Shown: piece by piece, positions 18,609-22,703 of the stretch
How positions within the stretch are numbered: the first letter of the stretch is position 1
How the letters are laid out: the number at the start of each line of letters is the position of its first letter
IMG/VR virus record: IMGVR_UViG_3300011008_000028
DNA length: 64,000 nucleotides
DNA from: a virus
Lineage: Duplodnaviria > Caudoviricetes
Reading direction: 5' to 3' (one strand)
The notes under the pieces: model-generated
The model's database searches: none
The model's input: only the letters and a program-made list of their open reading frames with translations
What the model was told of the DNA's origin: nothing
Position numbers and translations under genes: made by a program

Positions 18609-21600
18609 TTATAGTATTTCAGATGAGAATAACTGCAGATTGTCCTTGAATATCTTGACTATATCATCTGTGAGGTGCTTCTTCTTGAATGGAAGATTCT
18701 CTATGATGTAATCCCATATGTCATCAACATCATCAATCATATTAGGATTCTGACGAAGATATTTAGACAGTGTCTTGTGCAGTTTCTTCAAGTAGTACAT
18801 CTGCATTGTTGTACAGATGATGATACCTTTCCCGACAGGATATTCTATCGAATCGGACAGGTGTTCTGGTTCGCCAATGAATTCATCTTCATTGTCTATT
18901 GTTTCCATTTTGACCCCGAGACTCTTTAGCCTGGTCTGCAATATTTGGGCGGTTCTAGATGTGAAGTAATTCGGGATATTATACGTATTATCTTCATCAT
19001 CTATAATTGCCTCATACATAAATCTTCTTCCATCGATAGAAGATCTGTATAATACAGTTGCTAAAGCGAAGTCTTCAGGCCGTACGATTATTTGGAAATT
19101 TGGTGTTTCATCGTATTGTCCCCAAATCTTTCATATGAGGGTGGACTATATCTTCATACTATACTCTGATACCGAGTATACTATGCTCCCCACTTCCAAC
19201 TTCGTTCTAGGGCATTCCACTCCCTAGATGATCCTGAATAAGGACTGTACTCTACTGACACTGTGTATGGTATTTCACCAATACTAGTGTTGGTCGATAG
19301 TCTCTGAACGTTACAGTCATAGACTGTCTTCGCTGCGGATTAGCCAATCCAGGGCGTTGTTACGATCCGTACGGCGTTATCCGTACTGCTGCCAGGCATG
19401 TCACCATACCTGCGCCGTGTCCCTGGCTCTTTTCCACTCACCGAATCGTCATTGTCTTCGGGCCGTTCACCAGACGGCCCGACACATTTCTGTGTTCACT
19501 ACGTCTCCGTAGTAGATGAGACTATATCATTACCTGTTACCAGGTACACACCATTTCCCATTATGGGGCGGCATTCCGTTACCGCCCCGCCTCCAGTGGT
19601 GATTGAGGGGTACTCTACTGGCTACATTGGTACCGTATATACGAATACCGTAGTGGTTCGATAGTCGTTGAAGCTTCTACTTATTTTCCTTTTTGAATTT
19701 CTGTCGTAATCTAGATATATACTTTCTTGTACCTCGGGTATCTTCCATCCCCAGTTTATTGATGATATCGGTAGAGTCCATGATACCTTCTGCAAAGAGT
19801 TGATGAATCTGGTAACTTCTCTTTTCCGTTATTGATTCATCTCTTTCAAGACCAGGAATATTATACTGGTTGGATATGTAACGGTGAGCTTTTCCGGCAC
19901 GGATTGCATACACTATCCCAGCAGAAATACCCACCTCTGTAGCAATGATACCAGGTGCCATTCCCTGTTCCAGCAGTTTGCATGCTTCATGTATCTTCGC
20001 CGATTCTGTTGCCTTCTGCACTTCAGGGAGATCAAGACCATGGGTTACTGACTTCCATTCTCCTCTATATAGAATACCGATTACGAATGATTCCGTTACA
20101 CCCAATTGGGCTACGATGTCTTTGATCTTCATACCTTCCTTCGCCAGTTTGACAACATTGATTACATCTTCCTCAGTATGTTTGGTTGAAGTACCACGGA
20201 TACCAATATTCCCGATTCCATTGATGGCCATTTCCTCTCTGGTGGTCCATTCCAGATTCTTGTACCAGTTAAGCCATCTTTGACCATTCTTATGGAATAC
20301 TTCGGGTTTGTCATCGGGGTTGGGAACGAACAGCTGAGCAACCATCCGGTGTACAGGTATCTGATGGTATTGACCATCGATCTTGATATTCGCTGTCAAG
20401 ATACCGGCTCTGTTCTCCCGGATATCAACTTTGCTATTCTGCTTCCAGTTATGTACCTGGCCGATGTTGGAAACTTCATAGTTGGTTTCTTTACCTTCCC
20501 ATGAATATCTTTTCCATTCCGGTTTAGCAAAGTCCTTCATATATGCATTCACGAATCGTCTTTCAGCAATGTCAAGTACATCATACGGTTTCCCGTATAA
20601 CCTTTCTGATGTCTGATTCTGTATCTTTTCATAGAACTTTTGAACGCCCATTCATATCACTTCCTTTCTTCTTTTATTATATATCCAGAAATTCATAAGT
20701 AGCTTGCCTGCGGATTGTCCCTAATTAACCCGTTTTTACCATCCGTAAACCATTACGTTTACTACTGCACAGAATATCACTATTTGCCGTGGTAGGATTA
20801 ATACTTTCAGGGTATCCCCGCAATTAGATGTGTTTATAGCCGACAGATTCTTCATCGGCTTCGTTGACCACGGTGCCCTCCCGCTCTTGCTATCCCCTGA
20901 TTTCTCAGGCAGAGATTCGTCAGAGATTGCACCGGATGATCGAACAGAGAATCCTTTCTCGCCAGATTGTTTGAGCATCATGAAGTACTGATATCCAACA
21001 TAGTGCTCACCAAGTGGGACATCCCTTCCCCACTTCTTCTTAGGAAAGAATACATGATATGGGCTAAATATTTCCCCATACTTTTCATATACTTTAATGA
21101 TTGAATCACGTAATAGCCAGTCGTTATTGAATGGCTCCCAACGAATGTAGATGCCGTTATCAGTACGCAGAGTTCCATCACGGTTGATGGATATGCAGTC
21201 TTCAATGAACTTCTTCTTCTTGTAATCAGACAGACCAGCATACAGTTCTTCCAGTTCGGCTCCCTGCTTCGGATTCAGTATGGATATGACATCAAATATG
21301 AATTCCTTCTGCTCTTCCACAGTAGGAAGTGTTGCGGCATGTTTCCTGGTACGGTCCGCAATGAACGTAACGGAGCCTTCATCCATTACCATTGGAATCG
21401 TTCTGTTAATGATCGCCAATGGGTTGGTGATAGCATCAACACGTTCAACATTGCCTACAGGGTGTTCAACACCATTCTCATCAATGACAACCTTATCAGC
21501 CAAGTATGGCATGTCTTCGTCTTTCCAAATCTGGGAGACGACAGTTTTGTTCCCGGCCCTTCCTGTGATCTTGCGGCCCACATTAATAGGCATCTTCTGA

Positions 21601-22703
21601 CGTATCAGAATTTCCACCATGATGTTGGAAAAGACGGAATCATTCCATGCCCATACGGCCTGGGTATCAAGATAGTTCATTGCCGTTCTCATCCACCTAT
21701 GGATCTCCTTATCTACCTTGGCAGGATCAGATGCCTGTTTCATGATAGACTGACATGTCTTGTAGACCTTGGTATAGAACCATCTGGCATCATTGTAGTA
21801 CCGCATTACCTGGGCATTGACTTTGTTGACCTTCAGGTTAGGATTGTTACAGTATACATTGATATCGATGACCTCTCCCTCGCCATACAGAATATGATCT
21901 GACTGCATGTTGATATTACGTAATGAGATATCGCGCATATCGGAGAACATCCTATTCTCAGATACAGTACGTGTTGCGGCAATGATACCGTTAGTAACAA
22001 CATCGCCAATGTCTGGCAATCCCTGATACTTACCATCTGAACCATACAAATTCAGGAGTACAGAATTCTCTGACAGGGATATTGTTTTGGCAATGACATT
22101 GTTACATACCATCCTCTTGGCGAAAGACTCCGAGACAACGATTGCATCATCCTGTACCGCCGGATGTACGGCAAATAAAACTCTTCCATTCAGACCGATC
22201 CCGACATTCCCATACTTGTCATACGACGTGGATGATGTGAGCATTGTGCCCGGTGGAATGACTTCACCAATTTCCAGAGCATCGATGGTCTCATTGTTAT
22301 AGTCGAAGCCAAAATTCTCCGGAAGATTCTCCGTCTGCTTCCGTTCGACAACGATATACGAATCATCTTCTCTGCAATGTAAGAAGTACAGGGCAAAATA
22401 TGATTTCCCCTTGAGGAGTTCATTGTACTTCTTGCAGATATCGATGACTTCATATTCTTTGTCCGTCTTGGTGTAGAATGACGAGAACTCGCCCGAAATG
22501 TTCTCCTTTCCATCATACAGGAAAGGGAACTCGGGATCATCGATAGCCAAATGCTGGGAGTGATGTTTAATGTTCATGGTTTGGCGCATTATGTTATTTG
22601 CTCCGGCGAAATCGCCTTGCCCAATTAATGATAACCTCTTTTTCCCAACAAGCTCATCATTCTTCTGCTTCAACTCTTGGATGAGGTTATATTTCTCCCT
22701 CAT
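18609..22703 (-). CDS. Phage multisubunit RNA polymerase beta subunit, C-terminal part; spliced from exons 22703-20854, 19449-19436 and 19111-18609
   Basis: Beta motifs QDDAIVVSE, GRKITGRAGNKTVVS, DMPY and NPLAIINR. Joining the three exons restores an in-frame KPI-RFGE-YETPNF (cf. bacterial RFGEME) and continues to LKSLGVKME. Confidence 0.88.
19112..19435 (-). mobile_element. Group I intron 2 (no ORF; apparently lacking 5' P1-P3 elements)
   Basis: Q AATCCGCAGC, R TTCAGAGACTA, S AAGATATAGTCC, and a terminal G before exon 3. An in-frame TGA means it cannot be read through. Confidence 0.8.
19450..20853 (-). mobile_element. Group I intron 1 (IA-like) carrying an HNH ORF
   Basis: P1 AGCCGAU/GUCGGCU with a U.G pair at the 5' splice site. 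P element AATTGCGGGGA, Q AATCCGCAG, R TTCAACGACTA, S ATGATATAGTC. P3 ACACATC/GGTGTGT, P10 with exon 2, terminal G. Confidence 0.9.
19677..20651 (-). CDS. Intron-encoded NUMOD4-HNH homing endonuclease-like protein with C-terminal HTH repeats
   Basis: YEVSNIGQV (NUMOD4) and HRMVAQLFVPNP...HKNG...N...NLEW. The ORF lies between the Q and R elements of intron 1. Confidence 0.85.
   Translation of the reverse strand: MGVQKFYEKIQNQTSERLYGKPYDVLDIAERRFVNAYMKDFAKPEWKRYSWEGKETNYEVSNIGQVHNWKQNSKVDIRENRAGILTANIKIDGQYHQIPVHRMVAQLFVPNPDDKPEVFHKNGQRWLNWYKNLEWTTREEMAINGIGNIGIRGTSTKHTEEDVINVVKLAKEGMKIKDIVAQLGVTESFVIGILYRGEWKSVTHGLDLPEVQKATESAKIHEACKLLEQGMAPGIIATEVGISAGIVYAIRAGKAHRYISNQYNIPGLERDESITEKRSYQIHQLFAEGIMDSTDIINKLGMEDTRGTRKYISRLRQKFKKENK

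Follow-up and report, generated by a model that had tools for sequence, protein, structure and literature searches.

Two predicted group I introns set 14 nt apart around a micro-exon in the RFGE motif of a jumbo-phage RNA polymerase β gene

In this work, we examined a stretch of 64,000 nucleotides (nt) of DNA from an uncultured giant phage (hereafter the window; Caudoviricetes, IMG/VR record IMGVR_UViG_3300011008_000028) and, within it, a gene for a β-like subunit of a multisubunit RNA polymerase (RNAP), read on the minus strand from 21400 to 18600. The gene appears as three exons separated by two putative group I introns (Table 1), and the exon between them is a micro-exon of only 14 nt that codes for the RFGE residues of a conserved polymerase motif. 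A sequence-only reading of the window had proposed this layout, and the exon borders it gave (20854, 19449-19436 and 19111) were all correct when we re-read the window. Exon 1 terminates in ...AAGCCGAT (AAG CCG AT), with its last base at 20854, while exon 3 begins with ATGAAACACC at 19111. Joined by script, the three exons gave a single open frame, ...STKPIRFGEYETPNFQII..., in which KPIRFGEYETPNF encodes K-P-I-R-F-G-E-Y-E-T-P-N-F and which continues in frame through the stop codon at 18609. Excision of both introns at the predicted sites thus restores the conserved reading frame. Furthermore, the exons preceding the two introns both end in U (20854 and 19436) and the introns themselves both end in G (19450 and 19112), as had been proposed.

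This organization is not reflected in gene calls. The list of open reading frames (ORFs) of the window contains a 735/655-amino-acid (aa) ORF running into intron 1, a 324-aa ORF within intron 1 and a 136-aa ORF in exon 3. The wrong C-terminus and the separate 136-aa ORF expected from gene callers are indeed what public calls report on a sister contig, namely a product of 655 aa whose tail is wrong, the HNH gene (324 aa) and the detached 136-aa ORF. The latter covers only the last 136 codons of exon 3, starting at Met 19019, and we found no in-frame ATG, GTG or TTG upstream of 19019 in this exon, so that its separate translation was rejected. Intron 2 measures 324 nt in the window, a multiple of three, so that the micro-exon and exon 3 share a frame even when unspliced; this shortened intron contains many in-frame stops.

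The product of exon 1 matches the RNAP β subunit profile phrog_3295 (E 1.8e-81) and the Pfam domain RNA_pol_Rpb2_6 (PF00562, E 4.6e-14), and is about 70% identical to its homologues. Since the phrog_3295 match spans only profile positions 27-612 of 698, the called ORF lacks its C-terminal end. Exon 3 encodes a sequence 63% identical to residues 616-780 of an uninterrupted homologue, P0010. This homologue matches chain C of the AR9 non-virion RNAP structure 7S00 (E 2.6e-68), the nearest solved relative of the window protein, and also phiKZ gp71 in 7OGP. The nearest cultured relatives are the β subunits of the Bacillus phages PBS1 and AR9 (about 30% identity), followed by those of other jumbo phages. 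The PIRFGEYETPN segment aligned opposite AR9 'pvrignmeisn', the motif itself lying opposite 'vrignme'. The gene therefore shows both features of the C-terminal half of a non-virion jumbo-phage β subunit, that is Rpb2 domain 6 and an R(F/I)G(E/N)xE segment, and on the basis of these matches we conclude that it encodes the C-terminal-half β subunit of a jumbo-phage multisubunit RNAP. We take its RFGE segment to be the counterpart of the bacterial RFGEME segment of RpoB. Exon 3 found no match among GenBank phages by megablast or tblastn, a single-protein scan of viral contigs returned nothing, and the exact junction patterns, in full or deleted form, were absent from IMG/VR.

The search of a large protein collection yielded two length classes of homologues. 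In the longer class (772-804 aa, about 60 proteins), every member has (K/T)P(I/V)RFGEYE(T/S)PNF where it aligns with our motif and then continues with the exon 3 sequence, whereas about 55 proteins of 616-668 aa depart from this consensus somewhere within the same 15 codons. The alignment with intron-less homologues thus places the (I)RFGE(Y)E motif where it had been predicted. Because the peptide is invariant or nearly so in the full-length class, its restoration by the predicted join is, by this comparison, far beyond chance, and the protein once given, the splice junctions are unique. Counting over the best 120 homologue clusters, we found the motif intact in 64 and broken in 56. The breaks fall after KP(I) in 17 clusters (site 1), after RFGE in 14 (site 2), after RFGEYE(T/S)P in 16 (site 3) and upstream of the motif in five, with two more after RFG and one each after PIR and RFGEYE, so that some 15 codons contain at least seven break points. 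Since uninterrupted homologues carry the motif and nearly half of the clusters break there, the alignments argue that the predicted join is right and that the motif locus is a true intron-insertion hotspot, in agreement with the sequence-only reading.

The guides of the introns vary together with synonymous changes in the exons across loci, at both site 1 and site 2. At site 1, the exon CCGAU occurs with the guide GUCGG and the exon CCCAU with GUGGG. At site 2, the exons GGUGAGU, GGAGAGU, GGAGAAU and GGUGAAU are accompanied by GCUCAC, GCUCUCC, GUUCUC and GUUCAC, respectively. At the level of sequence, this covariation is the strongest evidence that the predicted introns are functional.

Judging from its pairings, intron 1 is a complete group I intron of the IA type. 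Its P1 consists of 7 contiguous base pairs (bp) (20860-20854 with 20844-20838) and presents a U.G pair at the splice site, and guide positions 20850-20846 form a 5-bp P10 with 19447-19443, corresponding to bases 3-7 of the micro-exon. Both helices had been assigned to this guide before; P1 and the 5-bp P10 hold, whereas the GT/AC pairs that had been added to P10 do not, as these bases are already engaged in P1. Hairpins resembling P7.1/P7.2 sit between P7 and P3'. When scored against the Rfam group I model RF00028, whose gathering score is 50 bits, the 3' half of the intron reached 28.7 bits (E 7.8e-5 on 2.1 kb), and its true 5' half alone gave a truncated P4-P6 match of 14.8 bits. The 324-aa ORF lodged in the intron encodes a protein matching the phrog_59 HNH endonuclease (E 2.9e-30), with weak Pfam matches to HNH_3 (21.7 bits, cut-off 24.8), HTH_7 (29.6 bits) and NUMOD4, and it is homologous over its full length to ORFs in the introns of related loci. 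These similarities place the protein with the I-HmuI-like HNH homing endonucleases of phage introns and suggest that it has endonuclease activity, and intron 1 is probably mobile.

The copy of intron 2 in the window possesses Q, P6, R, P7.1/7.2, the 3' strand of P3, P8, S, P9 and the terminal G. Within it, we observed no guide for the end of the micro-exon, by eye or by script (best pairing 2 bp), and no partner for the 3' strand of P3 and no J3/4-P4 element. Since the guide and two 5' strands (those of P3 and P4) are missing, this copy as written would be unable to recognize the 5' splice site of the intron. The module 'guide - UAAA - P3 - UAAUUGC - GGG' is present in every other real intron of 98 related loci, and at the 49 candidate Q/R sites of these loci all other real introns have their own P4 5' strand.

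An exact-sequence look-up retrieved sister contigs that resolve this absence, namely L099/L102 (ENA ERZ3810914, 41.7 kb) and L101 and L100 (JGI 3300010998). L099 and L101 originate from two samples distinct from that of the window. Over a 5-kb stretch, blastn showed 100% identity between each of them and the window, the only difference being 45 extra nt located between window positions 19431 and 19430 (L099 4045-4089, L101 3770-3814). These 45 nt hold, in order, a P10 guide, a P1 guide, UUAAA, the 5' strand of P3, UAAUU (J3/4) and the 5' strand of P4. The P10 guide is formed by 7 nt complementary to bases 1-7 of exon 3, the P1 guide GCUCAC pairs over 6 bp with the end of the micro-exon, including a U.G pair, and the P3 strand CUCCUU pairs with GGGGAG at 19191-19186. 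Taken together, the two guides make a continuous 13-nt sequence that is the exact complement of the ligated junction except for the obligatory wobble, so that both splice sites of intron 2 are fixed independently. The full 369-nt intron 2 (L099) scored 55.4 bits (E 1.8e-13) with RF00028, versus 21.1 bits for the window copy, and its centroid fold recovers P1 and P4; by this score and these pairings, the full form of intron 2 is a group I intron.

Since otherwise identical sister contigs carry the 45 nt, the window copy represents either a deletion allele or an assembly fault. We did not find any microhomology at the deletion breakpoints. The first base of contig L100 falls precisely on the right-hand breakpoint, and 80 nt of this contig overlap the end of L101, indicating that the assembly graph of the JGI 3300010998 sample branches at this point. 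We consider an assembly or consensus fault and a splicing-dead deletion allele to be about equally probable.

The 3' tail of the window intron 2 also contains, at 19130-19119, an 11-nt copy of an exon variant coding for RFG, identical to the exon found in locus L005. If G 19132 served as the 3' splice site for intron 1, the product would stay in frame but carry KIWGQYD where RFGEY is expected. Part of the 11-mer coincides with GAAGAU, the usual 3'-terminal motif of this intron family, and the copy may be the fossil of an earlier insertion or be due to chance. A P1 hairpin that the Rfam alignment places inside intron 2 was rejected, as it would yield an out-of-frame product.

Table 1. Predicted exons, introns, intron elements and the intron-borne gene at the polymerase locus (window coordinates)
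Feature	Position	Strand	Remarks
Exon 1, RNAP β-like (C-terminal half) gene	20854..22703	-	called start Met to last base U at 20854
Intron 1, group I (IA-like, with P7.1/P7.2)	19450..20853	-	1404 nt, final G at 19450
Micro-exon, 14 nt	19436..19449	-	third base of Ile codon, Arg-Phe-Gly-Glu, first base of Tyr codon
Intron 2, group I	19112..19435	-	324 nt in window, final G at 19112
Intron 2 deletion junction	19430..19431	-	blastn: 45-nt gap in window only; both sides 100% identical
Exon 3	18609..19111	-	166 codons and stop; stop at 18609
HNH homing-endonuclease gene (putative), 324 aa	19677..20651	-	within P6 loop of intron 1
Intron 1 P3	20833-20827 / 19552-19546	-	7 bp
Intron 1 P4	20822-20816 / 20715-20709	-	pairs with classical Q element
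Intron 1 P6	20705-20697 / 19682-19671	-	encloses ORF
Intron 1 R	19671-19662	-	forms P7 with S
Intron 1 P8	19545-19532	-	GUAA loop
Intron 1 S	19528-19520	-	forms P7 with R
Intron 1 P9	19515-19497	-	
Intron 2 Q	19340-19334	-	
Intron 2 R	19309-19298	-	
Intron 2 P3 3' strand	19191-19186	-	
Intron 2 P8	19180-19160	-	
Intron 2 S	19152-19144	-	

Tandem introns around a short exon were also found at related loci. Introns at sites 1 and 2 with a 14-nt micro-exon occur in L021, a 265-kb contig, and in L032, while L042/L043 and L024 have introns at sites 1 and 3 with a micro-exon of 25 nt. A 25-nt micro-exon is likewise present in L054, between introns at the upstream site and site 2, and L033 combines the upstream site with site 3 (37 nt). 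The shortest spacing was seen in L014, where introns after RFG and after Tyr leave a micro-exon of 6 nt (Glu-Tyr). The tandem pair of L042, which is devoid of ORFs, scored 59.6 bits (site-1 intron) and 60.1 bits with RF00028, both over the threshold.

Regarding L014 (8080-8400), the 6-nt micro-exon reads GAGUAU, each of its two introns has a matching 6-bp guide and the downstream one, after Tyr, bears an ORF. In L032 (3990-6638) and L054 (3100-3994), the sequence lying 3' of the site-2 introns is not exon 3 of the polymerase gene, and L032 comprises three intron cores that are nearly identical to one another. Both contigs are likely chimeric assemblies through repeated introns.

Considering all the above results, we estimate at roughly 0.88 the probability that the invariant (I)RFGE(Y)E codons were invaded by two group I introns, independently of each other and 14 nt apart. 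The pairings, the covariation and the covariance-model scores agree on two group I introns around a 14-nt micro-exon coding for RFGE, as the sequence-only reading had proposed, and it is from these, together with sequence and homology, that we infer actual splicing. Some observations weigh against this interpretation. Intron 1 stays under the Rfam gathering score and its core pairings were assigned by hand; the window intron 2 reaches only 21.1 bits and has neither P1 nor P3 nor a proper P4; and the frequency of the 45-nt deletion is to be judged from only three contigs of this phage on record. With respect to intron 1, we attribute the low score to the model, which cannot bridge the 975-nt ORF and takes a false 5' half from inside it.

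The deletion itself invites another explanation, in which the 45-nt-deleted form is a true, viable genome and a circulating allele whose intron 2 is still removed by means of a 5' module supplied from elsewhere. Suggested sources are an RNA transcribed elsewhere in the genome, transcripts of a co-infecting full-length genome, or the GCUCACC found in the HNH gene (19889-19883). In line with this, the sequence of exon 3 is conserved and undamaged, and L100 starts at the right-hand breakpoint, where the assembly graph branches. Furthermore, the stretch 19895-19883 comprises 7 nt perfectly complementary to the micro-exon end and, just before them, the GGAAAA with which intron 2 also opens. However, the latter 13-mer encodes G-K-A-H-R, which is conserved in related HNH proteins (GKAWKY, GKSHKS), so that coding explains it. 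Moreover, a second 5' module is missing from the 64-kb window (nhmmer detected only that of intron 1, E 9.7e-5, and a regular-expression search agrees), the P3 5' strand of intron 1 cannot pair with the P3 3' strand of intron 2, every other real intron at the 49 Q/R sites has a P4 5' strand of its own, and the missing 45 nt are simply present in two sister contigs. We therefore regard excision with a trans-supplied module as very unlikely; if true, a phage would here possess a group I ribozyme that is naturally bipartite. Among the individual candidates that we tried and rejected, the guide-like GGAAAAGCUCACC at 19895-19883 appears to be a coincidence, as it encodes the conserved G-K-A-H-R-Y and the real guide is found in the sister contigs. 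The profile used for trans modules was built from 60 modules and, like the regular expression, returned only the one of intron 1 in 64 kb. A weak 5'-module match at 19985-19967, with the P4-like AAACUGCUGGAAC, encodes the conserved CKLLE motif of the endonuclease family, and the 5' half of intron 1 was dismissed as a partner of the intron 2 core given that the P3 strands are not complementary.

The gene might also remain unspliced and produce separate polypeptides of 655 and 136 aa, the intron-like sequences being relics. Gene callers do report separate ORFs, and the RNAP subunits of jumbo phages are already split among several genes (PMC7598289). Nevertheless, such a gene would end in a wrong 37-aa tail after KP and lose RFGE, together with the 30 conserved residues that extend from RFGE to Met 19019 and that are yet kept intact in the sequence, while the exact fit of the guides to both exon ends, their covariation with these ends and the intact ribozyme cores would be left unexplained. 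We consider this reading highly improbable. Alternatively, the tandem layout could be an assembly chimera between a strain with an intron at site 1 only and a strain with an intron at site 2 only. Such assemblies can be unreliable, and L032 and L054 seem to enter unrelated exons downstream of their intron cores. However, a spacing of 14 nt is too short for a k-mer join without real spanning reads, the order of intron 1, micro-exon and intron 2 is shared by three independent contigs, which stem from no fewer than two further samples, and L021 shows the same layout, which makes a chimera extremely improbable.

Assuming that the two introns are independent and functional, the guide of intron 1 would hold the end of exon 1 in P1, with the U.G pair at the cleavage site, and bases 3-7 of the micro-exon in P10. 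An exogenous G would then cut at 20854|20853, and exon 1 would be ligated to the micro-exon immediately downstream of the terminal G (19450). The full 369-nt intron 2 would in turn form P1 with bases 9-14 of the micro-exon and P10 with bases 1-7 of exon 3, joining the micro-exon to exon 3. Since neither the guides nor the P3 helices of the two introns are alike, inclusion of the micro-exon would be favored over its skipping, and in engineered tandem introns differing guides and P3 helices have been reported to favor exon inclusion (PMC10136302). Skipping would join ...CCGAU to AUGAAAC..., giving AUA UGA and hence a stop codon. Ordered splicing, which had been proposed on account of the short spacing, does not follow from these pairings. 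The P10 of intron 1 and the P1 of intron 2 do not overlap on the micro-exon and therefore do not compete, so that both can form at once and no order of removal is imposed.

Tandem arrangements of this kind are already known in phages, and what differs here is the subunit, the motif and the well-populated hotspot. According to the account of Landthaler and Shub 1999 given in PMC10136302, the group IA2 introns 2 and 3 of orf142 in Staphylococcus phage Twort surround a 23-nt exon. As in Twort, two related tandem phage group I introns interrupt one protein gene and leave a very short exon that both must recognize. Unlike in Twort, where the gene is a tail gene, the exon of 14 nt lies here in an RNAP β motif, the upstream intron bears an HNH gene and the two introns have different guides and P3 helices. 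In addition, exon skipping is seen in Twort, whereas in the present gene it would create the stop codon.

A parallel within jumbo-phage polymerases is the PhiPA3 gp210 intron in the virion RNAP gene gp211/209, for which endonuclease activity and a competitive benefit have been shown experimentally (PMC11620839). Both are HNH-bearing group I introns located at a highly conserved motif of a multisubunit RNAP gene. However, PhiPA3 has a single intron, in another subunit and another motif, and its properties were established by experiment, while those of the present introns are predicted from sequence. In the 23S ribosomal RNA (rRNA) of Coxiella burnetii, as related in PMC10136302, two group I introns likewise flank a short exon, of 34 nt; there the gene is a bacterial rRNA gene and the introns belong to different subgroups. 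Fungal mitochondrial genes contain tandem group I intron modules, mini-exons and pseudo-exons (PMC12308204), and resemble our locus in having adjacent modules (from a few to 18 nt apart) and exon-like duplicates at intron ends. These introns are nonetheless organellar, carry LAGLIDADG genes and are in some cases spliced as one unit, whereas each full intron here has complete helices. Finally, a study of jumbo (Jug) and crAss-like phages of the gut used metatranscriptome reads to confirm splicing for roughly half of its predicted introns (PMC12880540). There too, essential genes of uncultured large phages are split by many group I introns and HNH genes, but that study covers terL, nrdD and DNA polymerase genes and describes no micro-exons in an RNAP β motif (PMC12880540).

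These findings have consequences for annotation. In this phage family, automatic annotation would truncate an essential polymerase subunit and invent an orphan gene of 136 aa, and about half of the homologues on record are mis-called likewise. Along approximately 45 nt coding for one invariant polymerase motif, at least seven intron insertion points are present, with micro-exons down to 6 nt. The locus may thus offer a compact natural data set on how homing endonucleases and group I ribozymes vie for one conserved target, and on how adjacent ribozymes avoid exon skipping. It also stands as a warning that contigs assembled across repeated introns can bear small deletions or chimeric joins.

A second hotspot was observed in the same gene at the conserved GR(H/A)GNK codons, around residue 380 of P0010. 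In many related loci an intron lies there directly after ...IVG, often with an HNH gene (L005 7143-7569, L007, L008, L010-L014 and L031-L048), while the gene of the window is uninterrupted at this point. Elsewhere in the window, an array of six transfer RNA (tRNA) genes was detected on the plus strand at 44046-44588 (Rfam tRNA, 55-67 bits).

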